From the NCBI RefSeq assembly GCF_964204645.1, contig NC_134030.1, forward strand, positions 16,740,110 through 16,804,109: a stretch of 64,000 nt of DNA. The letters run 5' to 3'. The notes beneath the pieces were generated by a model, which saw only the letters and a list, made by a program, of their open reading frames with translations, was not told the DNA's origin and made no database searches. This document shows, piece after piece, positions 30,755-54,959 of the stretch. Made by a program: the position numbers and the translations under genes. The first letter of the stretch is position 1; each line of letters starts with the position of its first letter. This DNA is from Tubulanus polymorphus (taxonomy: Eukaryota; Animalia; Nemertea).

Positions 30755-30770
30755 TTTTTCACCTATATAA

Positions 30771-31348: not shown

Positions 31349-31372
31349 ATGCATAATTTTTTTGTTAAATAA

Positions 31373-31795
31373 ATGGCTTCTGCAATTATAACTATTATAG
31401 GATCGGCAATTGTTAACGCTTTAGCATTTACTGGTGGTGGTTATTTATTTAAACATATTGATAAAAATAGTTCATTAGGAGAACAAAGAAGACATAACTT
31501 AGCGTTAGAGAAATACAATAAAGCTGCAGAAGAATATAGAGAAAAGAGACAAAACTATACGGATTACATCAATAAAGAATTATATGATCAGAAGATTTCA
31601 CATAGAGATTTTCAATCAGTTGATGATGCAATGAGTTTATATAACACAGTAACAAATAAAGAAAAATTACATCTATACAAACCTAAATTATCAGATTATT
31701 ATACCCCAAGTAAAGAACAACAGAAATATGAAATAATATGGATTTTAGGTGGAACTGTTATTGTTATATTTGTTGCTTATAAGTTTACTAATTAG
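31373..31795 (+). CDS. Hypothetical membrane protein (hydrophobic N- and C-termini, central coiled coil)
   Basis: MASAIITIIGSAIVNALAFTGGGYLF and WILGGTVIVIFVAY. Confidence 0.75.
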   Translation: MASAIITIIGSAIVNALAFTGGGYLFKHIDKNSSLGEQRRHNLALEKYNKAAEEYREKRQNYTDYINKELYDQKISHRDFQSVDDAMSLYNTVTNKEKLHLYKPKLSDYYTPSKEQQKYEIIWILGGTVIVIFVAYKFTN

Positions 31796-31814
31796 TAATT
31801 TTTATTCTAAATAA

Positions 31815-32249
31815 ATGGAAGATAAAGTTGATAATATTGATATTATTCCTCATGATATAAATAAAACTAAATTAAAAACATATTTAGAAAAACAAATATT
31901 AGAATTTGAAAGTGACTTAAAGATAAAAAAGAAAAAATATTTAAAAAGTAAAATTATATATTATTTGATTATAAGTGGTTCGGTTACAATTAGTTCTGTA
32001 ATAACATTTTTAGCAATATTCAGTCCATTAACACCATTAGCTATATCAATTGGTGTATTAGGATTAAGTTCAAGTGTTTTAACTGGTATAAGTTCAAAAT
32101 TAAATATAAAAAGTAATAAAGAAAAAATTAAAACTAATATAAAAGAAATTAATAAATTGAAGAATACACTAGATTATATAATAAGTTTAAATGGTCATAT
32201 AACAGTTGAAGAACAAGATAAATTATTAAAAGAATTAATAAATTATTAA
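31815..32249 (+). CDS. Hypothetical two-TM-helix protein
   Basis: About 50-aa hydrophobic hairpin flanked by basic coiled segments. Confidence 0.75.
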   Translation: MEDKVDNIDIIPHDINKTKLKTYLEKQILEFESDLKIKKKKYLKSKIIYYLIISGSVTISSVITFLAIFSPLTPLAISIGVLGLSSSVLTGISSKLNIKSNKEKIKTNIKEINKLKNTLDYIISLNGHITVEEQDKLLKELINY

Positions 32250-32266
32250 TTTTTTTAATTATATAA

Positions 32267-33656
32267 ATGGTAGATAGTTTTCCAAAAGCTTTCCGATATA
32301 ATAAATCAATTAAATATAATATTCCAGCAATAGATTTTAATAAAGATATTACATATAGAAATGAAGTTTTAGATTCATTAATTGATTTATATATTTATGT
32401 TACTGAAACTAATAATTTTAATGCAAAGATGGAAAATATATTTCATGTATATTTAATTAATTTTAAAAAATTGGAAGATGAAAAACAATGGTTATTAAAA
32501 TCTAATATGAAGTATTGGCAGAATTAAATTAAATTTTGCTGTTTATTGTGCAACAACAGGATGTGGAATTAGTTGGAATGATCATTTGAATAATTCTAAA
32601 TATAAATTAATTCAAAGTTTATTTAGATTTCATACATACTTTCAAATAAGAATAATATTAAATGAATTAGAGTGCGCTTTACCAGGATCTAGGTATTTCA
32701 AAGAATTAGATAATAATATAAATTTATCTAAGTTTTATAAGATTTGTAATGAATTTAATATAGATATAAATAATTCTGATTTTAGAACAAAAATTGGAAC
32801 AATAAGATCACTTCCTTGCCCTAAAAAGATTGCAGAATATTGTGCACTTCCCATACCATCTAATAGTTTTTATAATATCTATAATAATAAATTAGGTTAT
32901 GGTAAAATAGAAACAAAGGATTTAGAAACATTAAATTTTAATAAATTACCGAAATTTTATGATAATTTAAAACAAGAAAACAATAATGGTTGGGTTTATT
33001 TTATTTTAGAAAATAGTGAAGGTTTTACTAAATCAGGTATAGAAAGAATAAATCAATCTATTAGAACTTATTTGATATGTATTTTAGGTGCGCAAGTTGA
33101 AACAAGATCACCGATAATTGGAAATTTGAATACATCATTCGATACACAAAAACAGTTTAAAGTATTATTTGAAGATTCAATTCATAATGATAAAAATAGA
33201 TCGATTCCAGAAAACAATATAAGATATCAAAATTATTTAGATAAATCTCATGTAAGACTTAATTATTGTATAGGCCCTAATCTATTAATTATTTCTAATG
33301 ATTTAGTATTGAAGATGGGAAATATAATTGGTTATAATAATCTAATTAAAACTGCAACAATAAATAATTCATTTGGATTGAATGATATAAATAAAAAGAT
33401 TATTACTGCTCCAAAATTAATGGAAGGTGAAAAAAATAAAAAACACATTCAATCAACTGAAACTAAAACTAAGAATATTAAATTAAATAATGATTCCAAA
33501 ATAAAAGATTACAATACATCAGAAAATAATAGAACTGATAAAATTCAACATGATATAATTAAACTAAATGATGATAATAAATCCCATGAAAATACTAAAT
33601 TAGCTATAACTTGTATAGGAATTGTAATCGGAGGAATATTATATTTTAAATTTTAA
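32267..33656 (+). pseudogene. ~460-aa hypothetical virion-module protein with C-terminal TM, split at about 32525
   Basis: The P2 sequence reads YWQNQLNFAVYCA through this point; P4 has a stop/frameshift there. Confidence 0.7.
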
Positions 33657-33671
33657 TTTTTTATTATGTAA

Positions 33672-35129
33672 ATGGAAGTAGAAGGTGTAGAAGATTATGA
33701 AATGGGAGAAATGGGAAATAATAATGAAGGATATATTGATGATGAACCACAACCTGATTTTAATGAAACTAATATTGATAATAATGATGAATCAGCATAT
33801 AATTCTAATTTAGCAGATAGTGGTTCTAAAGGCCCATCAACAGATGAATTTGATAGAAGAACTAGATCGAGAATAAATCCTGAAAATGAAAATCCAGATT
33901 TAGTAAAACAAAATTTAGAATATAATGAATATATTTATAATTTCAAACCTATATTTGAAAAATCTGGATATAATATCAATGTTAGAGGCGCTAGACTTTT
34001 AGTACAAGAATTAAAGTTTTTAGATGGTGAATATTATTATCGTTTGAAAGATGATTATTATATTGATATCTCTTATAAAAAACAAGAAAAAATATTAGCA
34101 GAATCAACTTTGCTTAAGTTAGACCTATCTAGAATTAAAAGAATAAGAAATAGTAATGAACCAGAAGATGTAACACAAGAAGAAATTATTAAAAATGAAA
34201 GAGTATTTAAACAAAGAATTAATGAATTATTTGAAACAATCGATAATAATTTAGAAACAGAAACAACTTCTGAACAGAATATAACTTCCAAAACTAGTAA
34301 ACTTAAATCAAATAAAGTTCCAATTGAAAAACTTTTACCGAATGGGTTACTTGATGCAACAGATCAAGAATTAGAAGATTTAGATATATTTTCTGATAAA
34401 GCAATTAGAGAAATTATTAGTATAAGACTTGCATCTGATAAAATTGCGCATGATAAAAGTATAAGAGATTTTAAAATTAGAACTTTAGAAAAAGAATTAA
34501 CTGATAAAAATAAAGAAATAGAACAATTAAAATTAGATAGAGATAATAAAGTTATTGAAGAAATTGAATTTAAAAAAAGAAATGCATATTTAGAAAAAGA
34601 AAAAGATGATTTAGAATATAACATAGAATTACAAAAAGAAGAAATTAAATTATTATTAAAATCATATGATTATAATATTAATAGATTAAAAGTTATTTTT
34701 AAAGATTTGTTGATTAAACCAAATTCTGAAATATCATTAAAAGATAGAATAAAGTTATTATTTAAATTAGAAGGAATAACAATTCTTTCAATTCTAACAT
34801 CTGTAACTATGTTATTTACAACAATTGGTTTAGCAATATCAAATGCTTTAAAATCTACTCCTACTCCCAATAAACCAGATAAACCTCCAGGTAATAATTC
34901 TATACAAGATAAAGTTAAAGATGGTTTAAAGAAATTAGCAAAATATTTATGGGAACTATCAAAGAAATCTGCTGCAGCTTTACCAGGAGTTATTGCTTCA
35001 ATTGTTGGTTTTATATTGAAATCTGCAGGAAACATTATTAACTTTGCTGCTGAACATATTATTTTATTTTTAATTACGGTTGTAAGTGCTATTATATTTG
35101 GGTTAGTGAATATGATAAAAAATAAATAA
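33672..35129 (+). CDS. 485-aa coiled-coil protein with C-terminal hydrophobic helices (putative membrane/entry protein)
   Basis: Acidic N-terminus, heptad region, then GITILSILTSVTMLFTTIGLAI, ALPGVIASIVGFIL and IILFLITVVSAIIFGLV. Confidence 0.7.
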   Translation: MEVEGVEDYEMGEMGNNNEGYIDDEPQPDFNETNIDNNDESAYNSNLADSGSKGPSTDEFDRRTRSRINPENENPDLVKQNLEYNEYIYNFKPIFEKSGYNINVRGARLLVQELKFLDGEYYYRLKDDYYIDISYKKQEKILAESTLLKLDLSRIKRIRNSNEPEDVTQEEIIKNERVFKQRINELFETIDNNLETETTSEQNITSKTSKLKSNKVPIEKLLPNGLLDATDQELEDLDIFSDKAIREIISIRLASDKIAHDKSIRDFKIRTLEKELTDKNKEIEQLKLDRDNKVIEEIEFKKRNAYLEKEKDDLEYNIELQKEEIKLLLKSYDYNINRLKVIFKDLLIKPNSEISLKDRIKLLFKLEGITILSILTSVTMLFTTIGLAISNALKSTPTPNKPDKPPGNNSIQDKVKDGLKKLAKYLWELSKKSAAALPGVIASIVGFILKSAGNIINFAAEHIILFLITVVSAIIFGLVNMIKNK

Positions 35130-35149
35130 TCAAATTTTTTGTTAAATAA

Positions 35150-36421
35150 ATGAGTGGGAATTATATCAATCCTTCTTCGAATTCTAGAATATCTAATGCT
35201 ATTAAAGCAGAAAGATCCCATCATATAATTACTCATAACCCTTCTAATATTAATCCCGATGAAACTTTATACGTTAGAATCCCTAGATTAACACAAAATA
35301 CTTTTTACGTTCCAAATAGTATCTATTTATCAGCCGATATAAAAGTAATCGGTAATAATAATAATTATGTTGTTGATAATGTTGGAAGATATTTGATTAA
35401 AAAGTTAACAATAAAGATTGGTCCGGAAACAGTTTTCTCATTAGATGATTATAATTTATTTATGCATTATAAAGATTTATGGTTAACTAAAGAAAATAGA
35501 AATAATATGATATTTCAGGGTATTCAATCAGAAAACCAAAATAAATTAAGATCAGATAAAAAAAAAATAAATTAAGATCAAGCTAATAGCGCAATATTAA
35601 CTAATGATGTAGATAAATTGATAAAAAGTATATATGGAAGCAAATATAAAATTCCATTAGACTTTGAATTGATAAATAATAATGCACCTTTATATAAATA
35701 CGCAATTCAAGAAGATATTATATTTGAGATAACATTTGCTCCTGTAAATGAAATTGTATTATCTAGCGTTAATAAAGATATGAGTTATAAATTATCGAAT
35801 ATATGTTTAGAATATGACACAGTAACTGATGAAAATATTTCAAGTATAATTCAAACCCAATACAATCAAGGGTTTTCATTATTATATGATTATATTGATA
35901 AATTTAAAACTGTAACTATTAATGCAAATGATGAAATAATTAATGAAAATATTAACTTTCCTGGAAGATCTATTAAAGGTATATTAATATTTTTTACTAT
36001 TGGAACGTATACTAATGGCGCAATAAATGTTGACAATTATTATAATCCTGAAATAACAAAAGTAGAAATAACTATCGAAGGTATAGCAAATAAAATATTT
36101 TGTCAAGGAATGAGAATGATTGATCAATGGGTAGAAATTAAAAAACATTTTATGAATGAAAAAATAAAATCATTTGAAAATTGCAACATTAATCAAATTG
36201 ATTATTATACCGGCAATAAATATGCATTATGGTTAGATTTTAGAACAACTGAAGATAATTCATTACATGGTTCTGGAAAAAAACTACAGAACACTAAAGA
36301 TGGAATACAATTATTCATGAAAGAGAATAAAGGAATCAAAAATTTTAAAATGCACATTTATATTATATCTGACGCACAATTAAATATTGTAAATTCACAA
36401 TTAGATAGTGTTATGTATTAA
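35150..36421 (+). pseudogene. Major capsid protein (double jelly-roll), frameshifted by a local duplication at 35538-35580
   Basis: ~420 aa, beta-rich; NPSNINPDETLYVRIP...VDNVGRYLIKKL...; size and position fit a Polinton MCP. Confidence 0.7.
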
Positions 36422-36453
36422 AATTTTAACTTTAATAAAAATATATATAATAA

Positions 36454-37431
36454 ATGGAAGGAGGTAAAGTATATAAACATATTCCATACATCGATACACA
36501 TGAAAATAATGATGGTTTATATTATGTAATACCTTGTAATATAGCATTGATATTTGATCCTATTTTTAAAAATTATAAAACTAAACTGATAGAAATCGAT
36601 AATAATAAAAGTGGTGTTGTTGATAATTTAAGTAATGTAATTGATAATAATGTAATACCTACTACACCTATAATACCTACTACTACACCTGTAATACCTA
36701 CTACTACATCTGTAATACCAACTACATCTGTAATACCTACTACATCTGTAATACCTTCTACATCTGTAATACCTTCTACATCTAATAATGTAATACCTTC
36801 TACATCTAATAATGCAATAATATTAAATGTTAGTGAAAATAGAAATTATTGTGGTTATTGTAATGGTGAATTTTCAAACGCTCCATCAAATTGGAATGAA
36901 CATATGAATACAAATTCACATATTACTAATGTTATAGAACGTGTTGGCAAAAAAGAATTTATAGAACACCCATTTAGATATGTTACAAAATTTGTTTCAA
37001 ATAAAAAAGTAAATGGTAAAGAATTATATAAAGATTTATTATTAGCAACACCTAATAACGATGAATTAGATTTAACCGATGCTAATGAAATATTAGGATC
37101 AAACACTGTAAATGAAATATTAGGAGCAAACACTAATAAAGATGATAATGAAAATGATGCCATACAGCACCCACATGGTGATATAGTTACAGATAAACAT
37201 ATTGATAATAAATATTCTATGAAACATAAAGAAGAAACTATTGATGATATAATAGAAAGGATGAATAAGCGTAATAATGAAACAACTATTGATGATTCGG
37301 TAAAAAAGGTGAAAAAGGTGAAAAAAAATTATAAAGATGTTGATGTAGATTCGGTAGAGCAGTTAAATATGTTGTTAGGGTCGTCTGATAGTGAAAGTGA
37401 TTCAGAAATTAATTATCTAACACTCGAATAA
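36454..37431 (+). CDS. Pro/Ser/Thr-repeat plus C2H2 zinc-finger protein
   Basis: (VIPTTS)n repeats and CGYC-x12-H-x5-H. Confidence 0.75.
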   Translation: MEGGKVYKHIPYIDTHENNDGLYYVIPCNIALIFDPIFKNYKTKLIEIDNNKSGVVDNLSNVIDNNVIPTTPIIPTTTPVIPTTTSVIPTTSVIPTTSVIPSTSVIPSTSNNVIPSTSNNAIILNVSENRNYCGYCNGEFSNAPSNWNEHMNTNSHITNVIERVGKKEFIEHPFRYVTKFVSNKKVNGKELYKDLLLATPNNDELDLTDANEILGSNTVNEILGANTNKDDNENDAIQHPHGDIVTDKHIDNKYSMKHKEETIDDIIERMNKRNNETTIDDSVKKVKKVKKNYKDVDVDSVEQLNMLLGSSDSESDSEINYLTLE

Positions 37432-37570
37432 TAAAGGTTGAAAATTGTATAAAATAATAGTAAATAAAAAAGGGTTTTAATTATTTAAGGTATCTAATAG
37501 GGTATCAGGTATTAGGGCATCTAATGGGGTATTAGGTATTAAGGTATCTAATACATAGGTATACAAATAG
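37432..37570. terminator. Convergent intergenic region with GGTAT(C/T)-based short repeats; putative bidirectional terminator
   Basis: Lies where both transcription directions meet; the same repeats occur in P1 at 1580-1630 and 1797-1885. Confidence 0.4.
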
Positions 37571-38182
37571 TTATTTTATAAATTTATATTCATATGGAAA
37601 TTGTAATCTCATAAGTAATTTGGAACCTTTATTATTCTTTAATTTATTCATATATTCATCATGTAATTCAGGAGGTATAATTTGATTTTCTTCCACTGAT
37701 TGTTGCATAGATTTTTTATCTTTGTTATAAAATAAAACTAGAAATCTTATATTCTCCCTAAAGTCTTTAACAATTGAATTATATTTTTGATTTAAAACCC
37801 ATGTTGTTATCCTAAAATGTCTACCAGAGAAAGCTAAATAACATAACTCACTTTCTCTAACTTTTGAATCATGTAAATTTGCGCAATCATCTATAATGAA
37901 TAATGTATTTGATCCTTTATAAGTATCAATTGCTATTTTTATACAATTATCTAAATTTTCTTTTACTGTTTTAGGATCTAATATAATAAACTTTTTTATC
38001 TTAACTATGTCTCTATTATATGTTTTATTCATTTCATAAGTAGGACAGAATAATATTATATTATCAAAATGATTCTTATAAATAGTTTCTAACAAATCTA
38101 ATATGAAATGTGTTTTACCACAGTTTGTTACTCCAGTAACTAACATATTATGCGGTTCAAATATAAATAAATCTTTATTCAT
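37571..38182 (-). CDS. DNA packaging ATPase (A32/FtsK-HerA family), intact
   Basis: GVTNCGKT, LFIIDD, SGRH...LNQ and FREN motifs. Confidence 0.92.
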   Translation of the reverse strand: MNKDLFIFEPHNMLVTGVTNCGKTHFILDLLETIYKNHFDNIILFCPTYEMNKTYNRDIVKIKKFIILDPKTVKENLDNCIKIAIDTYKGSNTLFIIDDCANLHDSKVRESELCYLAFSGRHFRITTWVLNQKYNSIVKDFRENIRFLVLFYNKDKKSMQQSVEENQIIPPELHDEYMNKLKNNKGSKLLMRLQFPYEYKFIK

Positions 38183-39260
38183 TTATTCTTTTAATTTTAC
38201 TAGATAAAATCCATTCATTAAATTTATCATCATATCCTTTATATTTCACCAAAGAATACTTTTTTCCTTTAAGAGTTTTTGTTATCAATACTTTTTCTAT
38301 TTTGTATTCTATTTCATCTGGATTTGGTACAAGTGATAATTCTTGTTCATAGAAATAACCTAATATTTCTTCATCTTTTAGATCTTCTAGTTTATAAACA
38401 AATGGTTTAGTTAATATTATCTTTTTAATTTTAAATATTTCTTCTGTAAAATTAGGGGTATAACCTTTATAAAATGTTTTTCGATATTTAGAAATTCTAA
38501 CATGTTGTCCAATTTTGAATTTAGGTTCTCCAAAATCATGTGTAACAAACGCGCCATATAAATTATTCCAAACTATTTCCGAATTATCTTCTTTTCTAGC
38601 TTGTATAGGTTTCATATTTATAGAACTATGTTTAGAATTATTATAACCTTTCACTAAATCATCTAACACATTGATATATTTATATGTTTCATTAGCGGTG
38701 AAATATTTCCACATTCTAGTTTTCAATGTTTTATTAAATCTTTCTATAACGGATGCTTTTTTATCTGAATGTGTTGAAAAATATTCTACATCGTTATCAG
38801 ATAATAGTTTTTTGAAATGTTCGTTATAAAATTCCTTACCTTCATCAAATTGTATTTTATCTGGGATAGCTTCTTTAAATATTAATTTGAAAGAATTTGT
38901 AACTTCTATACCAGTTTTATTTTTAATCGGGATACTCCATGCGTATCTACTGAATATATCTATAACATTTAGTATCCAAAAATATCCTTTGTTATATTCT
39001 TCTAAGTTTTTCATATCAATTAAATCAGCTTGCCATTGTTGGTCAATATATGAAACCATTACTTTTCTTGTTAAATATTTTTTATCCATCTTTTTATGAA
39101 TTTGATATGTGGGTTGATTTTGTAACCATGATTTTAATTCACTATATTTTATATTGCTATTATCAGATTTAATTTTATCCCATAATTCTGAAACGTTAGA
39201 AAATGATACTTCACTTTCTGGGTTGTAATATAACGCTCTTAAATATTGTTCTTTTTTCAT
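38175..39260 (-). CDS. Retroviral-type (rve) integrase with C-terminal chromodomain, intact
   Basis: WQADL, QFDEGKEF, IERFNKTLK; C-terminal YKIEKVL...LVKYKGYDDKFNEWI. Confidence 0.95.
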   Translation of the reverse strand: MKKEQYLRALYYNPESEVSFSNVSELWDKIKSDNSNIKYSELKSWLQNQPTYQIHKKMDKKYLTRKVMVSYIDQQWQADLIDMKNLEEYNKGYFWILNVIDIFSRYAWSIPIKNKTGIEVTNSFKLIFKEAIPDKIQFDEGKEFYNEHFKKLLSDNDVEYFSTHSDKKASVIERFNKTLKTRMWKYFTANETYKYINVLDDLVKGYNNSKHSSINMKPIQARKEDNSEIVWNNLYGAFVTHDFGEPKFKIGQHVRISKYRKTFYKGYTPNFTEEIFKIKKIILTKPFVYKLEDLKDEEILGYFYEQELSLVPNPDEIEYKIEKVLITKTLKGKKYSLVKYKGYDDKFNEWILSSKIKRINE

Positions 39261-39266
39261 CTTATT

Positions 39267-39650
39267 TTAATCCATTAATAATAATTTAGATTTAGTTTCA
39301 TTTGACTTATTTTCTGGTATAATAGGTTTATTGTCATTGGAATCATCTTTATCATCAGATTTGAATTTTGATTTATATATTACACCGGATAATATAATAA
39401 CTGTAACTAATCCAATTGTAATATATAATTTATAATTACTTCCAGCATTAGAAGAATTAGATGGATTATTATTTGAATCAATACCACCGTGTGGGTGCCG
39501 TACGGCACCATCAGATAAAGTCTGTGATTCATTTATATCAGTTAATTTCTTTTTCTTAGCTTTTTTTAATTCTGAAGATCTTTTACCTAATTCTCTTGCC
39601 CATATAATTTGTTTCTCGGATCTAGGCTTCTTCTTAACGCTATCACTCAT
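39267..39650 (-). CDS. Hypothetical single-TM protein with basic N-terminus
   Basis: Intact ORF with a homolog in P1. Confidence 0.7.
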   Translation of the reverse strand: MSDSVKKKPRSEKQIIWARELGKRSSELKKAKKKKLTDINESQTLSDGAVRHPHGGIDSNNNPSNSSNAGSNYKLYITIGLVTVIILSGVIYKSKFKSDDKDDSNDNKPIIPENKSNETKSKLLLMD

Positions 39651-40245
39651 TTATTTTAGTTAATTTTTGTTCTGATTCATTTTCTGTTTCGACGTTTGGT
39701 TGTAGTACATCTGTTTCGTTCTTACCTGATTTATATTCCATAGGTTTGATGTTCGAAAATGTAATAACTCCAGTAGAAATTAATGTCATAACCGATCCTA
39801 ATTGAAATGAAGCATATCCAACCCATTTTTGTAATTCAGTCATAACTAAATAGTCATTTTTCAAATCATTATATAATTTATTTTCATCATCAATTGGTAT
39901 TAACTGGTTACATAACTTAGAATAACATTTGACAATACCATCTGAAATAGAATCATTTATTCTAGCTAATCGAGCTTCTTCATAAATCTTAAAATATTTT
40001 ATTACTTGATCGGGTTTCATAGCATCTAGTTCTTGAAAAGTAATGATTCTATTTAAAAACTCCTTAGATTTCCCGCCAGCAATTAATAATTCAAGATGAT
40101 GCTTACAATATAAGTAGTATTCATAATCTATATTGTTATTAACTTGAATAGAATTAGTTACAACTGTATCTTTATTATCACTTATACCCAAATCATCTAA
40201 TGTTTTTTCAATATCAATACTATTCTTATTAGATTTCTTTGACAT
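39643..40245 (-). CDS. Hypothetical protein
   Basis: Intact ORF with a homolog in P1. Confidence 0.7.
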   Translation of the reverse strand: MSKKSNKNSIDIEKTLDDLGISDNKDTVVTNSIQVNNNIDYEYYLYCKHHLELLIAGGKSKEFLNRIITFQELDAMKPDQVIKYFKIYEEARLARINDSISDGIVKCYSKLCNQLIPIDDENKLYNDLKNDYLVMTELQKWVGYASFQLGSVMTLISTGVITFSNIKPMEYKSGKNETDVLQPNVETENESEQKLTKINE

Positions 40246-40657
40246 TTATATTAGAGAAATTTAATAAGAAAAATATTATAAGTATTCTTCAAATGATACT
40301 AGTATCTCTTTAGGTTAATACTAAATTGACTAGGTTAGTTAAAGTTAAAGAATTTCTATTCAAATCTATTCAAAATCTATTCAATCTAATGTCAATTAGA
40401 ATTAACAAAAGAAAATATTGAAAATATAATAGAATTGACTAGCTAGTTGAAGTTATTGTTTTTTTATTATATTTTATTTAAATTAGGATTTAGATTATCT
40501 CACTACTATTGTCTATCTATTAGGAGCAGTAACTATAACTGTCCAGATAAGTCATTTCGGATCCTCGATATCAAATCCTCAACTGAAAATAAATTCAAAG
40601 AAACGACTGGTGGAAATATTATTTCATAAACAGATATATTTATTATACACATTTTAG

Positions 40658-40881
40658 CGATCAATAGTAGAACAATGGAGAACAATAGAAATGCGGTCAT
40701 ATCGGACCGGTTATTGCGCAATACATAGTTATATTTTTATTCTGTAAACTACAACATTCAAACATAGAACTGTAACCAATCAATATTGAGCAGCTGTTTC
40801 AGTCAACAACGATCAATAGTAGAACAATGGAGAACAATAGAAATGCGGTCCAATCGGACCGGTTATTGCGCAATACACAGT
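40658..40881. repeat. Two ~70-bp direct repeats, ~152 bp apart
   Basis: CGATCAATAGTAGAACAATGGAGAACAATAGAAATGCGGTC..ATCGGACCGGTTATTGCGCAATACA occurs twice. Confidence 0.8.
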
Positions 40882-40949
40882 TAACAGTAAACAATACAAT
40901 ATTAAAACAGATATATACAATCGAGATCTAAGACCTTCAGTATCATAAT

Positions 40950-41678
40950 TTATAATTTTGTCCAGAATTCTTTAATTACTAGATTGTTTACAATCATTTC
41001 TTCAATTTCTGGTAAATGTCTTACTACTTCACTAAATGCTAATCCTAATATTTTGAATTTTTCATATTTTATTAATCTACCTACTCTTCTCAGTTTTCTT
41101 TCAAAACCGGCACTGATATCTATGTTCTTTTTAACCCACAGTCCCCAAGAAATCCCCTCAGTTTCTTTATCAAACATTGAAAACCCTATATTTAGATAAC
41201 CCCCGAAAATGATGTGGTCCCATAGGTGATTTGCTTTTCTATTTAATATGGTTTTATAACTTTTTTTTAAGATATCAGTAATTTCAGCAAATGAAATAAC
41301 TTCTATACTTCGTATTTCCGGAAAGTTTAAATGTCCTGTGTCAATGATTAATTTAGATTTTAAAAACTCGTTCAACTCTTCTCCACTCATTTTCTTAGTT
41401 TTCGATTCTTTGAGCCCCAACAGCAATTTGAGTCGCGTTGCTGGTAATTTTGGTAATTGTAGTTCGCGCGGTAATTGTTTATTATGTATTACATCACTCA
41501 GAATTTTCACCATTTCTTGATGATAGTCCAAATGTTCTTGTAATGTTTGTGAAGTTTGTTCGTCAATTACGAGAGTTTCATCCTCCATTTCTATTGATTC
41601 CTGAGTTTCACTATCCAGTAGCAATCGTTCCTCATCCGTTGGTTGGCTTAGAATTTCTGGTTGATCTTTGTGTTCCAT
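40950..41678 (-). CDS. P4-specific accessory protein (242 aa), unknown function
   Basis: Intact ORF absent from P1; preceded by a putative 5' UTR intron at 41685-41772. Confidence 0.7.
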   Translation of the reverse strand: MEHKDQPEILSQPTDEERLLLDSETQESIEMEDETLVIDEQTSQTLQEHLDYHQEMVKILSDVIHNKQLPRELQLPKLPATRLKLLLGLKESKTKKMSGEELNEFLKSKLIIDTGHLNFPEIRSIEVISFAEITDILKKSYKTILNRKANHLWDHIIFGGYLNIGFSMFDKETEGISWGLWVKKNIDISAGFERKLRRVGRLIKYEKFKILGLAFSEVVRHLPEIEEMIVNNLVIKEFWTKL

Positions 41679-42069
41679 TTTAATCTAAAATATATCGTGA
41701 AAATGAATTACTGTACTTAAATATGTTTAAAGGTTTCCCTACTTCATAATAACTACAAAAAACGGTACTTACATTTAGATTTAGAACTGTAAACTGTGTT
41801 TTGAGAGAGAATATCCAATACGTACTATGTATGTGAATGTTGATTTCTAACTGCCGACGTGGCGCACGTTCGACCAAACTAATTACTTCTGCACAGATGT
41901 TCTTTATGATGAAGTTAATTAATTCTTTAGAATTGAAAACAAGATATATTTGGCAACATATGTTTTAGTAGTAAGCAAAAGCTATGTATTATATACATAC
42001 AAAGCTCAAATAGAATTGCCAGCTTTCTAACCACTGATCGAAACCTCAGAATGCGGTTGATTCTGTGAA

Positions 42070-42691
42070 ATACTATTCCATAATTCAACAAATGTCTTTG
42101 CTTTATCCAGTTGATCTAAATATAACTGTAAATCTAGTTTATTGGATTTAATAATGTTTTCCTTCTTTTCTAAAGGTCTTAGATTCTTCCAATTCCAAAT
42201 AAGTTTTTTATTGTATTCATCATTCAGTCAAATTTAGAAATCGGCAACACATGATCAATATGAAAGTATTCACCATAATTATCTATATTCATTTTATCTT
42301 CGAATTGATATATTATCCATGATTTGAGAAATCCATCTGAACAACCCAATAGATTAGATAGTGTTTCTGAATGTGTTTCTTTGTTGAATAATTGTGTGAA
42401 TCTAGATCTTAAGCATTGTTTCAATCTAAAATTAAGATCTGTTTGATATCTTTCTCTCATATATTCTGTCATATAATCATTATAAGCTTCTCTATTATCT
42501 TCTCGGTATTGTTTGGTATATAGTTTAAAACAAGTTTTACAGCAATATTGAAAACCATCTTTGCTAATCTTACGCTTACTAAATTCTGTTAATGATTTAT
42601 CTAATTCACATTTAGAACACTTCTTGTAGTATATGTTTATAACGCTAGTGTTATTTGTAATATTAATAATTTGTGGTTGTTCTGGTTCCAT
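42070..42691 (-). pseudogene. Zinc-ribbon plus HNH endonuclease, frameshifted near 42225
   Basis: Homolog of P1 5644-6297. Confidence 0.75.
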
Positions 42692-42770
42692 TTATTATAC
42701 GTATTTTTTTACTAAATTGGTTAATAATTTTAGAATCCTCTTCCATTTCTTCGACCAACGTCATCCTTTT

Positions 42771-43022
42771 TCATTCCTCGCTGCTTTTGATAAGTTCTTT
42801 CGATTCCTTGATAATAAATTCCTCAACGTATTGTTCATTATTTGGATCATTATTCCATAATTCAATAAATTTCTTTCCCTTTGTTAACTGTTCTGAATAT
42901 AACTGTAAATATTCTAATTTCAATTTATTCTCTAAATGTGTTATAGTTTTATTGTGTCTTGCTTTTTGGGATTTATCTATATCGATATTACATGTTGGGC
43001 AGTAGTACTTATTTGCTTCCAT
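42771..43022 (-). CDS. Chimeric 83-aa ORF: polB N-terminal zinc finger (from the TIR) fused to an HNH-like C-terminal tail
   Basis: First 38 aa nearly identical to PolB; LQLYSEQLTKGKKFIELWN resembles the HNH tail LQLYLDQLDKAKTFVELWN. Confidence 0.55.
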   Translation of the reverse strand: MEANKYYCPTCNIDIDKSQKARHNKTITHLENKLKLEYLQLYSEQLTKGKKFIELWNNDPNNEQYVEEFIIKESKELIKSSEE

Positions 43023-43104
43023 TTTAATACTATATTTTTTATTAAAATTGATTTTAGAAGTTCAATGATTTAAATGTTATTCATATATATATGAATATTT
43101 TAAG

Positions 43105-43370
43105 AGTAATAGGGATAATGGGCTTTCAAGCTAAAGGTTGAACGGGCGGGTGAGTAAAAATGAAAAACATAAAAATAATAACAATTTCTACTTGAATTAG
43201 GAGTGAAACTCATAAAATGAAAAATAAATTCGAGCGTGTGAGAATTTATTTTTCATTTTTATGACTTTCGCGAGTAATTCAAGTAGAAATTGTTATTATT
43301 TTTATGTTTTTCATTTTTTACGAGCTCGACCGTTCGACCTTTGGCTTGAAAGCCCATTATCCCTATTACT
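43105..43370. repeat. P4 right terminal fold-back hairpin (266 nt), within the right TIR
   Basis: Reverse complement of the left hairpin, with a few differences. Confidence 0.95.
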
Positions 43371-43680
43371 AATACATTTTAGATCTAATACCAATGAATT
43401 CAATCATTTCTTCACCACCTAATTCATCTTTGAATTTACCGGGAACTTTTTTATTATCATTGCTAAACAATTCATGATCTTTAGGATAATTACTGAAATC
43501 AAAACGATGTTTTAATGTTTTTAAATCATCTGTTATGTTATAAGTTTTTATCTTTAATATGTAACTGTCGGTATCAAAATATAAGATTTCTATATGTTTT
43601 TCTCCAAAATGAGGTTGTAATACGTTATAATATAATTCATACATTAATAACATTGATAATTCTAAAACTGATGCTCCAAC

Positions 43681-44083
43681 GTAATCAGAGATGATACAAA
43701 CTAAAGGAAAATTAAGTGCCCCCTAGTTTGTCTTTCTTTTTACTACTGACTAAGTTTCATTTATATTTATACCCACTATTGTTGTTTATAATCACCCCTT
43801 AGTTTGCTTCCCTTTAATCTATTTTAGCGTGTAACTGTTTCTACGTTAATTTTCCTTTAGTTTGTATCATCTCTGATTACTTGAATTAGTCTCTTTGTCT
43901 CTGGATTGTATATATATCTCATAATTTCTGTAGTATCTCATTATTCCTGAAGATGACTATTAGGATATAGTCGAAACGTTGAAATAAACTACTATCTCGA
44001 AGTTTCATTTTCGGACTTTTTATTATCATTGTGGGATTCTCTCCTCATCGCGTCAACACGGATATAGTGTTATACCAATCGTG
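43681..44083 (+). mobile_element. Penelope-like element 3' fragment with a 35-bp inversion
   Basis: Perfect inverted repeat 43681-43715 / 43846-43880; hammerhead motif followed by AATAAA. Confidence 0.6.
43941..43987 (+). ncRNA. Minimal type I hammerhead ribozyme (Penelope type)
   Basis: UUAUUC-CUGAAGA-U-GACUAU(loop)AUAGUC-GAAA-CGUU-GAAAUAA: core boxes, stem II, palindromic short stem III and stem I are all present. Confidence 0.72.
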
Positions 44084-46611
44084 ATCATCATTATTTGGGT
44101 AGTGTTGTTTTAATATTTTTAATTCATCATCAACTAATGATTTTGATAAGTTATCTAATGAACTATTTAAAAATCTATATGAGTCTATGAATCTTAAGCA
44201 TCCAAATTGGAATGATATATATATATTTTATATATTTTAAATTTATAAGTTGGTATTTTATCTTTTGATCTATTTGAATTTAATCTTTCTATTTCATTAT
44301 TGATTTCTTATATTTGATGACATAACTGTTTGATAAATTAATGTGCATCATATCCTGATAGATTATGAAATATAACTGGTACAAAGTTAATTTTCTTAGC
44401 TTGTAAGTTACAATTCTCATGCGCTGCACCTCTAAACTTTCCATTCAAATGATCATGGTCTCTTACTTTTTTATCTTTATAATTAAATATCTTTTCACAA
44501 TAATAACATTTATCTGCAAACTCAAATGCTTCTTTATCTTCTACTGTCATTATAATTTCTATATTTGTATTCAATAATTTACTAAATCTTATTTCATATT
44601 CAATTAATAAGTTACAAAAATGATTGATAACATTTTCATTTCTATAATTATAATATTCACTTTTAATTAGTTCTGGATAATCAGATTTAATATATAACCC
44701 GAAAGCAGCAGCTGATTGATGAATCTTTTTGATAGTATTTGTTATTAGAGGATCTGAATAATCAATTATATCATTTTCATTAGAATTTAATTTCTTTCTT
44801 TTATAATATATTTCTTTTCTATCTTGATCAGTTAATTCTTTATTTAATGATTCAATATCTCCATATATAACAAATAGTATTTTATTTTTGTAATCATATT
44901 TTTTGAATTCTAATATTTTATCATTTTCATTTGGTAAAACTAATTTACAATAATCATGATTTTCACATAATTGTTTATGATTTAATAATGTACTTTCATT
45001 ACTGAATTTATGTAAACATTTTCTACATAGATATATTTTATTATGGTGATCACTTTCTGTTCTAAAGAATAAATCTATTTGTTTAATCCACATATAATGA
45101 TTCTCATAATATAATATATCTACAACACCATTTGAATCATAATCTTTTGATAGGTATAAAGGTTCTAATGTATAATGTTTTATATTGTTGCCTTTTGTTT
45201 TTGGTAATTTGATTAAATCAAATACATTTATTCTTAAATTATTATCTCTTTCTATTTTTGGGATATTTTTAATTCTAACAGGATACTTATCTATCTTATA
45301 ATTATTTTCAAATGGTTTATAATGAGTTAATCTACAAATATTATCAGTTGCAGGATGTAAGCAACTAATTATTGCCCATAGAAAACATTTATCATCAGAA
45401 TTTTGTACATTTATAACAGCATTAGTTTTAAATGGTAGTTTAATATAACTCGATGCTTCAATATCTGGTTCTTTATAATATGATACATTATTTTCATCTA
45501 TTGGTTTTGATTAAGTTAACTTATTATATTTTGTGTTATAAACATGTAAAGTCATAAATATTATTTCATCAAATATTAAACCAGATCCTTCGAAATATTT
45601 CTCTTCTATTTTAGTTTTTATTTCATTATAACATTTATCTAATTTATCATCTATATGTTGTTTAGATATAATATGTTGTGAATGAGAATTTATATTATAT
45701 ATTGGTTTATCTTCAGATTTTATAAATTTAACTTTAACTGATATGCTAATTTTAGGATATTCAACATCTGTGATTATTTTTATAATATTTTTCATATTTT
45801 CTAAATGTTTTTTATTTTCTTCTAATGTTTTTCCTTCATGAAATTTAAACTCAATAGATGCTGGGCCAATATCACTTTTAAATGCTTCGGTTATCTCTAT
45901 ATCTTTTTTATTATCTAATGAATTAATATAATTTCTTACATCTTCCATGTATGGTCTTTTATTGTTTCATTTATTTCTTATTCTTTTAATTGTTTTATGT
46001 TTCTTATCATTGTCATTATCAGAATAATCTTCACCTAAAATATCATTATTCATATTTCTAATATGACTTTTAGATTTTAAACGTTCATTATAATATCTTT
46101 TATCACTGAATGATTGATTACATGTATCACATTTGTATGTTTCTTTTTCATTCTTTAATTCATCTAATTTAGTTTCTAATATATCATCTTCATATTCTAA
46201 TTTCAATTTATTCTATAAATGTGTTTTAGTTTTATTGTGTCTTGCTTTTTGGGATTTATCTATATTGATTTTACATGTTGAACAGTAGTACTTATTTGCT
46301 TCCATTTTAATACTAATTTTTTTTTTAAATTGATTTTACACATTTTATTCATTTATATTTTATTCATTTATATGTTATTCATGTGTATATATATGAATTA
46401 TTTCAATCACACTTTACTAACACTTTTAATGTTCAAAAATCTAACACATACAAATATAAATATTGAAATATGTTTAAAATATATCTATTTATCTATTCTA
46501 TAAGAGCTCGTTAATTACTCGTTACTTTTTTATTAACACTTTTATATTGAGTAATCTATCAATTTATATGTTATTCATATATATTTTATTCATGTATATA
46601 AATATTTTAAG

Positions 46612-46880
46612 AGTAATAGGGATAATAGGCTTTCAGATTAAAGGTTGAAAGGGCGAGTGAGTAAAAAATGAAAAATATGAAAATAATAATAATTTCTATT
46701 TGAATTAGGAGTGAAACTCATATAAAATGAGAAATAAATTCGAGTGTGCGAGAATTATTTTTCATTTTTCATGAGTTTCGCTACTAATTCAAATAGAAAT
46801 TGCTATTATTTTCATATTTTTCATTTTTTATGAGCTCGACCTTTCGATCTTTGATCTGAAAGCCTATTATCCCTATTACT
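46612..46880. repeat. P3 terminal fold-back hairpin (269 nt)
   Basis: AGTAATAGGGATAATAGGCTTTCAGAT...ATCTGAAAGCCTATTATCCCTATTACT. Confidence 0.93.
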
Positions 46881-47047
46881 AATAGTCCTAATCTGGGCAG
46901 GCTAATATTCTAATATCATTTAAAATTCTAGCAAAGAAACGGATATGATATCAGATGATATCTATGAATTCATTTTCTATACTCGTATATATATTGTCAT
47001 TTTTATAGAAGAAATGGGAAAAGGGGGAGAAGAAAAGAAAGAGGAAA

Positions 47048-47260
47048 GATTTTAGCGGCGCGCCGGTAGCCCGCTAAAATCATCGTTTCGCCAAAGCAAT
47101 TTTAAATTTAGTAGTGCGCATAAATTCTCATCTTCACCCGTCAAGGGATTCGAACCCACTACGCTAAAGCTGTTCTCCAAACCCCTTGACCTCACGAGTC
47201 GTTGGAGTCGTTACTAGCCGACCAGAATCCGGTCGTACCAATCACAGCGCTTGTAACAAA
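47048..47260 (-). repeat. Possible tRNA-derived SINE-like repeat
   Basis: Pol III B-box GGTTCGAATCC on the minus strand near 47146-47156, plus a GC-rich hairpin at 47048-47081; no clear A-box or cloverleaf. Confidence 0.3.
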
Positions 47261-50241: not shown

Positions 50242-53200
50242 TAGGAATAGGAACCTTATTTTTAATATTCTTCACAGCTATGGCAAGTTGCATATCAAAT
50301 GAAAGATAAGGAAATACTTATTTAGAACAGAAAAAACTTTAAGATCGGTGGGTAGGTTAACAAGTTACGGATTGTTGAAGTATCCATGACAACTCGATCA
50401 TTCTGCCAAAACCTATTTTGGTTCGATGTTGGGGGGTTATGAAGCTGTATATGGTCTACTACACCGTGTAATATATCATATTAAAGGTATTTTGAAGGGG
50501 GATAGCTTCATTTATGAAAAAACTAACATATATTAGGCCTTACAAACATTGAGAGCCATTTATTATGATTTATGGATCTTTTGTTTGTTGGTGCGAAACT
50601 GATGTCGAAAAATTATCAATTCATTCTTTTGCCACAAACGTTTTTTTCAGTAATGGCTAATGCTGACCCTCGCTCCAAAGGTTTACTTACCAATTGTCTC
50701 AATTGCCTACCTATACTTTTACATTATTATTAACCTATAAATCCATAGTACCCAGGTCTTAACCCGCTAAACACAAGGTAATTTCACGCGTTTTTGAGAA
50801 GAGTGAGGACGTACAGCTTTTGATGACAAGTTTCATTGTTTTGACGAATAATGAGGTAAAGGTAAGAAAAAAATCATGATATACTTACCATTTAATAAAT
50901 CAGCCAAGTGATAATCCAGATAATCCACAAGTAATACTAACATGGTAAATTGTTTAATGCACAGTTCAGTTCCAATTCAATGATTCCGTAACGAAAAATA
51001 GTTTTTATGTACATATATATGAGTTAACTAATTATTGTTCAATTCGCATATTTCCTTCTTTGATTTCATTTTAAATGTTTTCCACGTATAAATCATCGTC
51101 ATTATCATACAGGATGTTGAACCACTGTGGATAACCGGGCACAGATGAAATTATAGTTGCCAAATAATCTTCTACGTGGCCTTCGTCATTTGGTAAGTCT
51201 TCATCTTTTACCAACATTGTGTGCCGAATGCGTTTGCCGATCATGCTATTTGGTGAGGGAGTATTGATTTCGATTTCATATGCATTGGTAATCAGTTTCT
51301 TCACATTAGCTGACAACTCTTCAATGGACAGGTTTCGTCTTTTGTTATCGTGAGTCTTCACCGAAAAACAGTATAAGGTGGCATCGGATACTTCTTGTTT
51401 GAGAACCTGTTGACGAAATCGAATCTGAGCTTTTAGTGCCATTTCACGATCTCCCTTTGTTTTCAGCACCTTAGTTATCATATTCTGCACCTGCTCAACA
51501 CTTTGCCATAAACCATAGAAGAGGATGTCTCTGGTAATTAATTCTTTTTCTTTCAGTTGTTTTTCTTGCTTTCTTTTTTCATCTCTGATTTGTCGCTCCT
51601 GGTTCTCTCTACGCTGTTTAATTATTTCTTCTCGTCTTTGCTGGTTTTTAATTTTGATTTTCTTGCTGTTCTTCGTTGCAGATCTTATGAGTTCATGTTG
51701 TTCCTGTGTTGTTTTGCTGTTCAGCCATTCTGTCGTATTATTGAGTGAAAACATGATATATGCCTCCATGCTGATGTGTTTCATATTGGGCTTACAACGT
51801 AGCAAGTTATCTGTATAAGCAAATACCCTTTCGGCAAACTTGTTGTGTTTTTGCACCGATTTTGTGACGTCTAGACTCACTGGAGTTGTTGTAGTACATT
51901 CCGCCCTCTAAAAACTGCATATAATGCTTGCTGAGGAGTTTCGAGATAGCAGGTAAAGAAACTGAGAGAATAACCTCACATTCGGTATCGTAGGTTGACG
52001 GCTGGATAAGGTAATCATAAACGGCGTCCATTTTAAGTTTTTCATCATCAAAGGGTTTCATTTTTCCGGTCATGAATTCTGCTGTGCTGGTACTTGCCCT
52101 TTGTAGAAATTGAATTAATTCAGTGATGTATTTTGTAAGTTCTAATATATGAATCTGTCTGTCTTCGATTACCCTCCAAAGGGGAGCAGTTACTAGTTTG
52201 CTGATCAATCCTAAGGCTTTGCAGCCTGCGATATTTTCGTTGATTTTGAGATCAGCGAGGTCAGATCTTTGGAGTCGATTTTTTGAGCCAGTTGATTGAA
52301 GATATTCAGTCATCTTTTTGTGTAGGAAATACACAAAACCTCCATTGAAGAATATAATATTGAATCTGTTGCCTCTAAATGGTACTATAGGTATTGACCG
52401 CATTCCGTTGTCTTTTAAGAAATCATCTACGAAAATCTTGAATTGCCCATACGCCCCAGACTTCTCATCTCTGCCACGAGAAAAAGCTTTCGCTGCTGTC
52501 CGTATTAAACGGATGACTCCAGGTTCATTTGGTTGGATTATTTGTGGGCCACATGTTAATTTATCTGGTGTTTTGGTATTTTCCAGTTCCATGATTGTTG
52601 TTTGAGTGACTTCAGCAACTTGAACAAAGCTGTGAAGTCCACAGAAGAAATTGTTTAGAGTTTCGATCGGTTTTCTGTCATCCGATGAAAGAGAATCCCA
52701 GTTACTGACCACGACAGGTAAAATATTCTTCCGGTAATTTTCTAGAAGTTCATGCCATTTTAATTCTGTTGCTGCTCTATCAGACATAGTATTCCTGATG
52801 TTACTTAATACTAGTTTTCCAGCGTTGTTGTTGGTTGCCGTACTCTGATCGTCTATATCTTGGAGGACTCCTTGGAATGCATAAAATGTGTCATTGGCTG
52901 ATTTTGTTGCCAGGTCTCTGACACCAAGAACCCAGTATCGTTGATCAGAGTCAGTTGCGTGATATCCGATATACTTTTCTCCAAATTTTGATGTTTCATC
53001 CGAGTACAGGGTAGTTTGAGATTTAGTCGAGAATTCTTCGCTTAGCTGTTTTTGTGAGAGCCCGAGTCGTTCAATGTTCATATTTCGAATTGTTTTTTCA
53101 GATGGTAATTTTGATGGAGTTTTATCGATGAATTGTAAACAGGCGGTTATGACTGGTCCGATATGGGTGATACCTACGTGTTCCTTCAATAGTTTGTATA

Positions 53201-54959
53201 TCAGTTGCCGAAATTTGGATGAAAAGCAGTTACTTTCCAGATCGTATGTTTTCACTGTGTCTTCATTGAATTCTTTGATTTGATCTTCTAGTTTCTTGAT
53301 TTTTTTCCGCGAGCTGTAAATTTTCTTCTTTCAGTTTTTCATTTTCTGATATAGCATTATCGAGGATTTCGTTTTGTATGATTGGTACAGTTGTTTCATT
53401 CGCATTCTTTGTATATTTACAACGATAGTATTGTTCCCGTGCGGCTGTTCTTTTTAGGGTTGACTTAGTTGACTGTAATCTGTATGTTAGGGACTTGTTT
53501 TCGTTTTCATAGATAGTGAGTTTCTTAACTGATTCATTTAGTTTCTCCTGTGTATTCAAACTTGATTGACGGGTTGAACATGGTAAGATTTTTTCTGATG
53601 ATGACACAGTGGTTGATGATGGGAATGATGCTGATGGGGCTATACCTGATGTGGTTGACGCTGATGGTGGAAGTTTGAATTCTTTTTCTAACCAGTCTTC
53701 ATACTCTAATTGATTTCCGACGCGATGTAAACTTTTTGCTCTGTCACTGTTCGATTTTATTAGTCTACGAATGGACGATTCTAAACTCTTGGTTGAACAC
53801 TGGTTAGCAGATGGAATCGTGTTCTGAATGTACAGTAGTGTAGTGTTGATTTTGCCATGATCTTTATAATGTTTGATAATGTCGTGAATTTTCAAAGCAC
53901 GGCCGGTATCCATATTACTGAAAAAAAGATAAAAGATCATTTATTAATATTTTCATCGTTTTTGTTTTTTATTTGGCACTGCTCATAGTATTTTTCTTTT
54001 TGGTTTGTTCGAAGGGCTTGTATAAGAATAATGTTTCCAGTCTTCAAGTCAATTTTATTAATCGTAGAAACACTTAGGCCTGATTAATTTGGTCTCAACA
54101 TGATTTGTATTAATGCCTAATTTCCTCGTAATTTCACTTTCTTGTGATATGATATAAATTTAAGAATGTCTGTAAATTTGTATATGTTTGAATATTATAT
54201 GTATGTGAAATAAAAGTGTGAGCTTGGGAGATTCAGAATGTGTAATTTGGTGGCTCTTTGTTTGAGTAATATCTGTGTGAATATTCCTGGAAATGTCAAA
54301 ATCCACGTGCAATTGTTTACGTTTGACGCGCCTATTATATTGATCGCGCGGCACCGACCGGCCTGTCAATATTGGCTTCGCGGAAAAATGCGCGACATTG
54401 GAACTTAAATTTGTTTCATTCGATGACTAAAAAACAATACAAAGATCAATATTTTTTGTGAAGTTTTAGCGAGGAAATATTAATTTCATTCAATTTTTCA
54501 TCTTAATTCCGAAAATAGTAGTGCAAAATGTACTCACCGTTCGTTGATGACCTATTTCTTGCATTGATTTTTGACGATTCGTTAAAATATCAGCCTAGAT
54601 TAGCAGACGCGTCATCTTTAACCTTGACATGTCAAAATATTTTCCCAGAATCCCTTTCGTAACATGCCTGAACCAATGGAATTGCCGTCGATTAAAAACG
54701 TAAACAAACAAAATGGCCGACAATGTGCGCGATCGACGTGGAATTTACCTTGTGTTTAACGGACTATAAATCTTAATAAAAGGAATACAAACGATTTGTG
54801 TACATTTAGACCGTAAGTTAAGATTGTATTCTATGATTAGTGACCTTTATTTTCATACAAATCTGGATAAACAGCCGGATGGAGACGGATTAAAATTTGG
54901 TCTCGCTCCATACTGGCAGAATATAAATCCAATATGGCGGACATCGGTTCCTATTCCTA
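50242..54959 (-). mobile_element. hAT-related DNA transposon (7-bp TSD type, hATw-like), 4.7 kb
   Basis: 14-bp TIR TAGGAATAGGAACC; TSD GTCTCAG at 50235-50241 and 54960-54966; encodes a transposase. Confidence 0.8.
51071..53940 (-). pseudogene. DDE transposase (hAT/P/MULE-like CxxH group) in three frameshifted pieces
   Basis: SDETSK, MSDRAATE, FFCGLH and NKFAERVFA; probable upstream exon, with donor near 54537 and acceptor near 53918. Confidence 0.75.

Follow-up and report, generated by a model that had tools for sequence, protein, structure and literature searches.

Strand-specific terminal hairpins of Polintons as candidate structured 3' telomeres

The Polintons in the window (the whole 64,000-nucleotide stretch of Tubulanus polymorphus DNA analyzed here) end in palindromes that are flush with the terminus, fold better on one strand than on the other, have stems with compensatory changes, and occur in one orientation. 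Their DNA polymerase B (PolB), as judged from predicted structures and alignments, appears to keep a terminal-protein (TP) fold, a putative linking serine, and the catalytic pair of a vOTU protease. The reading favored here, with a probability of about 0.5, is that these fixed-orientation hairpins act as structured 3' single-strand telomeres, similar to those of Streptomyces, for protein priming and end repair. Such a strand-specific terminal fold would constitute sequence evidence that the 3' strand exists in single-stranded form and is under selection in that form.

Hairpin ends of a complete Polinton and its neighbors

Positions 25230–43370 contain a complete Polinton of 18.1 kb. Its terminal inverted repeats (TIRs; 25230–25692 and 42909–43370) are 97% identical over 465 aligned columns, and the left one holds the first 38 PolB codons. 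The element is bordered by two plus-strand copies of the 6-bp target-site duplication AATACA (25224–25229 and 43371–43376), and a sister copy near 17660 with a single AATACA provides the empty site. The plus strand encodes a protein-primed PolB of the pPolB2/Beta type (25579–29610; 1,343 amino acids, open frame). This protein has a predicted TP domain with an LF/PAD-like fold (residues ~145–261; 26011–26361) that includes Ser241 in the motif EGSG, a vOTU protease domain with Cys307 and His406 suggested by predicted structure and alignment (residues ~292–412; 26452–26814), and an HNH/endonuclease VII-like insert (residues 588–635; 27340–27483; PF02945, E 7e-5, 23.1 bits, under the 23.6 cut-off). 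The major capsid gene (35150–36421, plus strand) has homologs in relatives, is split into two ORFs in this copy, and has a weak Capsid_N match (PF16903, E 8.6e-4, below the cut-off). The minus strand encodes an A32-type packaging ATPase (37571–38182; PF04665, E 1.3e-12) and an rve integrase with a chromodomain (38175–39260; PF00665, E 1.9e-8, above the cut-off). No Pfam match to an adenovirus-like maturation protease was found among the 23 ORFs scanned. The AGTAAT terminus is one letter off (AGT)2, which is a Polinton end motif along with (AG)3 and (AC)3A (PMC8097293). The presence of PolB, rve integrase, A32 ATPase, TIRs with a 6-bp duplication, and the end motif identifies 25230–43370 as a bona fide Polinton.

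Positions 1–46880 of the window contain a cluster of four Polinton copies. The complete element is inserted in the PolB gene of a same-family copy (22371–25229 and 43371–46880), and the three copies other than the complete one, partial or interrupted, provide the remaining hairpin ends. A Copia-type retrotransposon fragment (8596–9645; SH3_retrovirus, RVT_2) lies between two Polinton copies. Elsewhere in the window are three minus-strand ORFs (51071–53940; 237, 424, and 225 amino acids), the first of which alone has a weak Spin/Ssty match, and a tandem array of ~155-bp units (60001–60640).

As claimed by a first-pass annotation made from the sequence, five ends are long palindromes; they start with AGTAAT and finish with ATTACT. 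The complete Polinton has its right terminal hairpin at 43105–43370 (266 nt, 3'-terminal strand plus) and its left one at 25230–25498 (269 nt, 3'-terminal strand minus). The other three, all given as plus, are located at 7597–8006 (410 nt, another copy), 21963–22081 (a short hairpin of 119 nt), and 46612–46880 (269 nt, the copy that received the complete element). The hairpins starting at 7597 and 43105 mark PolB-distal ends, and those starting at 21963 and 46612 mark PolB-side ends of minus-strand copies. In the arm alignments of the window ends, the 3' terminus pairs flush and forms a true primer-template junction, which agrees with the earlier description.

The fold energy of 43105–43370 is -108.5 kcal/mol for the plus strand and -100.5 kcal/mol for the minus strand, and none of 200 shuffled sequences were as stable (z about -24). 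At all five ends, the 3'-terminal strand is more stable than its complement, as had been proposed, with margins of 2.0 to 14.0 kcal/mol. Mismatches on this strand, summed over the five ends, include 43 G-T versus 5 A-C and 29 G-A versus 3 C-T; these counts come from arm-to-arm alignments with strand-blind scoring, include loop bases, and refer to five related copies. The annotation that nearly all imperfections are T-G or G-A pairs is accurate for the hairpins at 25230, 43105, and 46612, but not for 7597–8006, whose AT-rich middle additionally contains T-T and A-A mismatches, or for 21963–22081, which has one T-C and one C-A mismatch. A strand gap alone is not diagnostic, because the unrelated foldback element at 62967–63260 also has one (7 kcal/mol; 7 G-T versus 2 A-C). 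This control element is MITE-like, with GGGATC ends and partial copies at 62496–62659 and 63265–63301. The diagnostic signal is that the favored strand is nearly always the 3'-terminal one, together with conserved motifs and mismatches, rather than the size of the gap. On its 3' strand, the inner TIR is skewed toward G+T (GC skew 0.17, TA skew 0.27), which PolB coding explains in part. An Rfam search over 42600–47200 gave no match.

The right hairpin has an outer 27-bp Watson-Crick stem (43105–43131 with 43344–43370), in which compensatory changes are found between copies. It is followed on the plus strand (43132–43139) by T-G wobbles 43132/43343 and 43139/43336. These two wobbles correspond to stem positions 28 and 35 and recur in all five ends, and Watson-Crick pairs 7, 9–12, 16, 19, 25–27, and 38 change on both sides. 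Further inward, the arm alignment places a tandem G-A block of TGAG (43151–43154) opposite CGAG (43321–43324) and a purine internal loop of GGA (43200–43202) opposite GAG (43272–43274), the latter being the tip in a shorter variant. At the tip itself (43231–43242), the arm alignment and reads support a CGAG/TGAG tandem G-A block that closes a 4-nt loop. The blocks at 43151 and at the tip (TGAG/CGAG) are in a pyrimidine-GA-purine context, and NMR data on this CGAG-type motif revealed sheared G:A tandems (PMC10085684). The tip of 7597–8006 carries words that resemble mini-hairpins (GCGGAGC, CGGTAGC, and GCGAAGT) on the 3' strand only, the first of which has been named as a sheared G:A triloop (PMC5449611).

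Raw reads of the same species (run X4 of another study; ~12 in 100 sampled, 14,786 placed) contain variants that match across the stem. These are per-position counts, unphased per molecule: 43115 A>G (934/1,628) with 43360 T>C (1,488/2,912), 43120 G>A (618/1,482) with 43355 C>T (1,493/3,027), 43129 A>G (828/1,117) with 43346 T>C (1,465/3,642), and 43171 A>G (546/847) with 43303 T>C (736/1,652). A private C-C mismatch at 43265 is G in 1,192 of 1,220 reads, and the tip variant 43239 T>C, which creates a full CGAG/CGAG block, is present in 1,671 of 2,794. The two hairpins of the complete element differ by the whole pair 43129/43346; therefore, each hairpin is kept paired independently. Arm-to-arm copying can produce paired changes without selection, and the key point is that such correction spares the wobbles and the G-A blocks. 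An apex deletion with a joint from 43205 to 43269 is common (146 reads; also contigs of X1–X3) and turns the inner GAG loop into the new tip. These hairpins seem to grow and shrink by modules bounded by G-A pairs.

Terminal hairpins in distant Polintons

An alignment of 47 PolBs used as the query gave 179 loci (31, 80, and 68), with follow-up in five genome bins. Most of these loci stop before the element end, and 77 have at least 250 bases upstream of PolB. The presence of terminal hairpins is a possible reason why assemblies of such elements often fail to reach the termini. Ten flush terminal hairpins were found in relatives, namely at L121 (AGTAGT terminus, 35% PolB identity), both ends of a 19.4-kb element that sits in an AAT repeat (L112/L204), L074, L168, L241 169–282, L244, L245, and both ends of L241 291–15427. 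A target duplication (TAGGAA) was verified for L241 291–15427 only, and single ends were assigned by the (AC)3A or (AGT)2 motif together with adjacent genes or likeness to the inner TIR. The polymerase of L241 belongs to the other class (PF03175, E 5.7e-16).

The strand bias extends beyond the window. The 3' strand folds better in nine of the ten ends, often by <1 kcal/mol, and L245 is the reverse case with a better 5' strand (-24.2 versus -21.8). Loop mismatches in 11 chosen ends include 12 G-T versus 1 A-C (p 0.003) and 12 G-A versus 2 C-T (p 0.013); this count misses mismatches in larger loops, the ends are partly related, and the p values are indicative only. The tips in relatives carry CGAG or GCGAAGC, and in L241 291–15427 the word GCGAAGC is on the 3' strand at both ends. 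Among the (AC)3A ends, CGA at the tip of the 3' strand is invariant in all seven at a mean column identity of 62%, and five of the seven have a bulged C on the same arm. Seven of 25 stem pairs in these ends change on both sides, a level seen in 0 of 500 shuffles with relatedness uncontrolled.

A TG-ended family in bin G003 has a single orientation in 20 of 20 distinct ends. Its stem begins 5–6 nt inside the end and leaves an unpaired 3' tail, which suits a template for protein priming rather than a self-primer. The family also includes a reverse case, as a G-T is found at one site of the 5' strand in six of the 20 ends. Loci L205–L234 of the same bin represent a 23–24 kb TG-ended family whose PolB is split into separate parts. 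In one of its subfamilies there is a subterminal hairpin of 59 nt, closed on the 3' strand by a GAAA loop, and the sister subfamily has a 9-bp stem only. No terminal hairpin was found at the ends of L047, L197/L198, L185/L186, and L189, and the short stem of L047 favors the 5' strand. The hairpins are dispensable in the group, and the design is shared by distant relatives yet not universal. The TIR of the hairpin-less L047 (140–175 and 442–670) contains telomeric TTAGGG runs.

In a PolB tree, hairpin ends are found in separate branches. The deep nodes of this tree (FastTree; 164 single-HSP rows of 192 matching loci plus the window, with duplicates and short matches dropped and L168 too short) are weak, and the tree is informative on scatter only, with no order of events. 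Within one bin, the capsid and ATPase regions of L241 291–15427 and L204/L112 are >90% identical (tblastx) and are combined with different polymerase classes and end motifs, which represents a swap of end and polymerase. The hairpin end of a further element (169–282) is 8 bp away from L241 291–15427.

Several other observations concern the same loci. Polinton-bearing contigs L193, L194, and L196 have large inverted duplications with arms of 2.6–3.4 kb, possibly as snap-back products. L019 has an intergenic 184-nt palindrome (4657–4840) located 141 bp upstream of PolB and away from the contig end or any known element end; the palindromes of L019, L023, and L043 were left out of all counts. Many prokaryote bins (L112–L179) have eukaryotic Polinton contigs, including 131 PolB matches in G003, most likely due to host contamination. 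The pattern AG|AGT at the inner boundary, which would make free ends 2 nt longer, is present in all five window ends and L121 but is not general, as L241 and the (AC)3A ends differ, and it is only a weak lead. A hairpin-motif scan of viral_contigs had two matches and no hairpin ends. A scan of the five bins for the AGTAGT pattern had three matches, namely L121 itself and two by chance, and a scan for the (AC)3A pattern found six places, of which L236 and L237 looked non-palindromic.

Priming machinery, mode of replication, and alternative explanations

The window PolB has 5,306 homologs, and a model of its N-terminal part matches adintovirus, bidnavirus-like, and mavirus PolBs. No match was found when it was compared with viral_contigs and with the phage collection. 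The TP model aligns with 4ir1 (Z 8.2, rmsd 2.6, 94 aligned) and the vOTU model with 6oar (Z 7.7, rmsd 3.3, 99 aligned). These Z values are middling alone, yet the two predicted folds occur in the order assigned to TP and vOTU in PMC11071308, which used the same reference structure. Across 47 PolB rows, Ser241 is conserved in 46, Cys307 in 46, and His406 in 45, and Ser241 is the probable TP-linking residue. The idea that this PolB lost its TP was rejected, as the predicted TP fold, Ser241, and the vOTU catalytic pair are all kept. The TP profile also matches the hairpin-ended relatives L121, L112, and L168, and L074 weakly; for the N-terminus of the L241 PolB, single-sequence modeling gave no usable structure (pLDDT 31.9). 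The sole Pfam match of the window PolB is PF02945, with none to PF03175, and its features (an OTU-PolB without PF03175 and with a nuclease insert) agree with the pPolB2/Beta-adintovirus class as defined in 10.1101/2023.08.22.554363 and PMC8502044. The idea that the HNH insert travels with hairpins was also rejected, given its presence in the hairpin-less L047, L126, L127, L197, and L198; no HNH match was found in the hairpin-ended L241 polymerase or L074.

Adenovirus and phi29 replicate by protein-primed strand displacement. If Polintons do likewise, displacement would free a full-length single strand, the 3' end of which may fold locally rather than pair with the far end 15–19 kb away. Sheared G-A blocks and GNA loops could make this fold resistant to nucleases and mark a protein-binding site, and the folded 3' end would be the site where the TP domain of PolB begins the next strand. 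A trimmed 3' end may be re-extended on the inner arm, which would keep the outer stem perfect. Protein priming would copy the hairpin without inversion, such that the integrase would always receive the same orientation. Local folding would in this way replace or back up a long-range panhandle. The weak point of this model is that any B-family polymerase could readily use a flush 3' end as its primer, with no visible stop to run-on extension. We know of no test of the panhandle model, i.e., the pairing of the two distant TIRs, that lies behind Polinton replication. That replication model, attributed to Kapitonov and Jurka (2006) as cited in 10.64898/2026.07.28.741278, becomes directly testable on a short substrate. 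A hairpin is short and defined, and protein priming, self-priming, end repair, and nuclease cutting are separable on it in vitro.

The boundaries of the hairpin in the reads bear on whether it is part of the Polinton end. A total of 1,599 reads run past 43370 into diverse flanks (agreement 0.34), and the inner boundary at 43105 is absent among the six loose ends listed for X4, beyond which there are 536 others. The outer boundary is joined to many different host sites, and the inner one remains attached to the element; therefore, the hairpins are not free MITEs, and all five in the window are at element ends. At the level of sequence, the claim is supported that the 3' end has a strand-specific single-stranded structure and that this structure is part of the Polinton terminus.

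AAV-type hairpin transfer inverts an imperfect palindrome in every round. The window ends have one orientation in five of five, and these orientation data come from integrated copies, which show just what the integrase accepted. Seven letters were defined that would mark a flipped inner arm, such as C at 43132 and 43139 and T at 43146. None of them is among the 40 variants listed, beyond which there are 241 others; the weakest listed variant has 182 X4 reads at a depth of ~1,100, making this a soft read-level bound on flipping. Likewise, none of the 15 joints listed (91 more exist) changes strand at the terminus. The flip and flop orientations of an AAV-type rolling-hairpin replicon were not observed, and no Pfam match to a HUH Rep was found among the 23 ORFs scanned. 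Of the two mechanisms offered in the first-pass annotation, rebuilding of a local duplex origin fits these results, but a rolling hairpin fits poorly and is disfavored because no flip/flop was seen and the predicted TP fold, linking serine, and vOTU are intact.

Hairpin self-priming with a resolution that keeps the orientation is rather unlikely, yet the most probable of the alternatives. In this scenario, the fold-back 3' end primes synthesis and gives closed ends and head-to-head dimers, which a nuclease resolves asymmetrically, with protein priming as a second mode. The HNH insert of PolB (VSR in other lineages) would read the mismatches, leading to one orientation. VSR is an enzyme that nicks at T-G mismatches, and both mismatches and cruciforms are cleaved by endonuclease VII. 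The flush primer-template junction is what this scenario expects, pPolB2 lineages carry HNH or VSR inserts (10.1101/2023.08.22.554363), hairpin priming has been proposed for Halocafeteria elements (10.64898/2026.07.28.741278), and the inverted duplications inside L193, L194, and L196 may be related products. However, HNH does not track hairpins, neither a HUH Rep nor a strand switch at the terminus was detected within the ORFs scanned and joints listed, the TP and vOTU appear intact, and the 3' tail of the TG family is unpaired. Rolling-hairpin replication is still assumed for some parvoviral termini that exist in a single form (PMC8242256), and the orientations come from integrated copies; therefore, self-priming is only weakened by the orientation data.

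The two start modes may also coexist. It is conceivable, although unlikely, that many Polintons have a single-stranded intermediate with structured 3' telomeres and start synthesis from either TP or a self-primer, with the HNH/VSR nucleases of pPolB2 reopening self-primed ends. If true, Polintons would link replicons primed by protein (adenovirus, tectivirus) with those that have hairpin ends (parvovirus, poxvirus).

It is quite improbable that the folded single-stranded or frayed end is a packaging or integration signal read by the ATPase, capsid, or integrase, with no role in priming. The left hairpin of MVM is reported to matter for packaging and transcription (PMC8242256), and the title of one paper gives vaccinia hairpin mismatches a role in virion maturation. 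Moreover, L241 and L204 are both hairpin-ended despite their different polymerase classes and share near-identical capsid and ATPase genes. Their end sequences nevertheless differ (AGTAGT versus ACACACA) despite these packaging genes, and a strand-specific fold would not be accessible in a duplex that is packaged.

Finally, a functionless by-product of snap-back template switching, arm-to-arm correction, and deamination of an exposed single strand (C to T, A to G) that leaves a G-T excess is similarly improbable: although a similar G-T excess in the unrelated foldback element of the window, the variable length of 119–410 nt with common apex deletions, the many relatives without hairpins, the G+T skew of the inner TIR, and the accidental annealing named as an alternative in 10.64898/2026.07.28.741278 are compatible with it, deamination cannot yield tandem G-A blocks, GNA loops, or the GAAA loop, the wobbles persist while flanking pairs are corrected, the CGA tip is invariant across seven diverged ends, and both polymerase classes, as well as separate branches of the PolB tree, share these motifs.

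Comparison with known systems

The element at 25230–43370 resembles Polintons/Mavericks of the pPolB2/Beta type in its PolB with TP and vOTU, rve integrase, A32 ATPase, capsid gene, TIRs, 6-bp duplication, and near-(AGT)2 end, and some relatives carry the (AC)3A end motif known from Polintons (PMC8097293). Unlike described Polintons, each end is itself a strand-asymmetric hairpin of 119–410 nt. The words hairpin and palindrome are absent from the main text of PMC8097293, PMC8502044, 10.1101/2023.08.22.554363, and 10.1101/2023.10.06.561300.

A preprint of July 2026 (10.64898/2026.07.28.741278) reported palindromes beside the target duplication in Halocafeteria seosinensis virophages and PLV subtype 4; the palindromes lie within TIRs, and the preprint suggests priming by hairpins and asks for a survey on a global scale. 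The ends described here are similar in that the palindrome adjoins the target duplication. The Halocafeteria example is 52 nt long, and those elements mostly have non-pPolB replication genes, whereas the present ends occur with pPolB of both classes (pPolB2 in the window, L121, and L112; a PF03175 PolB in L241), and the window class appears to keep TP. Section 7 and related passages of the preprint's main text do not mention strand bias, G-A blocks, or orientation. Strand-specific G-T/G-A pairing or fixed orientation at Polinton ends was not found in the literature, mainly the open literature, and the preprint supplements may list pPolB palindromes. Terminal palindromes as such were already reported in virophages and PLVs; what appears to be new is strand-specific pairing together with fixed orientation.

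The hairpins are similar to those of parvoviruses (AAV ITR, MVM, and bocavirus left ends) in being terminal fold-backs of 110–270 nt in which the 3' end is flush and mismatches are conserved (PMC8242256). They differ from these in that no HUH Rep was found, no flip/flop was seen, the polymerase is the element's own and bears a TP, and integration produces a 6-bp duplication. Bidnaviruses acquired their PolB and TIRs from Polintons and, according to PMC4061559, do not form hairpins of this kind.

There is also a likeness in design with Streptomyces telomeres, in which TP priming takes place on folded 3' overhangs with sheared G:A loops, accompanied by fold-back repair (PMC5449611). Shared features include a folded 3' single strand, sheared G:A GNA loops, and a 3' end that can pair with an inner palindrome (PMC5449611), and for the Polinton ends the palindromes and sheared G:A motifs of the 3' strand are read from the nucleotide sequence only. 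Streptomyces telomeres, which are patched by Tpg and Tap, have several short palindromes, an internal origin, a Tap primase, and no B-family polymerase or integrase; the Polinton ends have one long stem. The likeness is thus one of analogy rather than homology. The occurrence of the same design in separate branches and with both polymerase classes suggests a recurrent solution for end protection that is convergent with Streptomyces telomeres.
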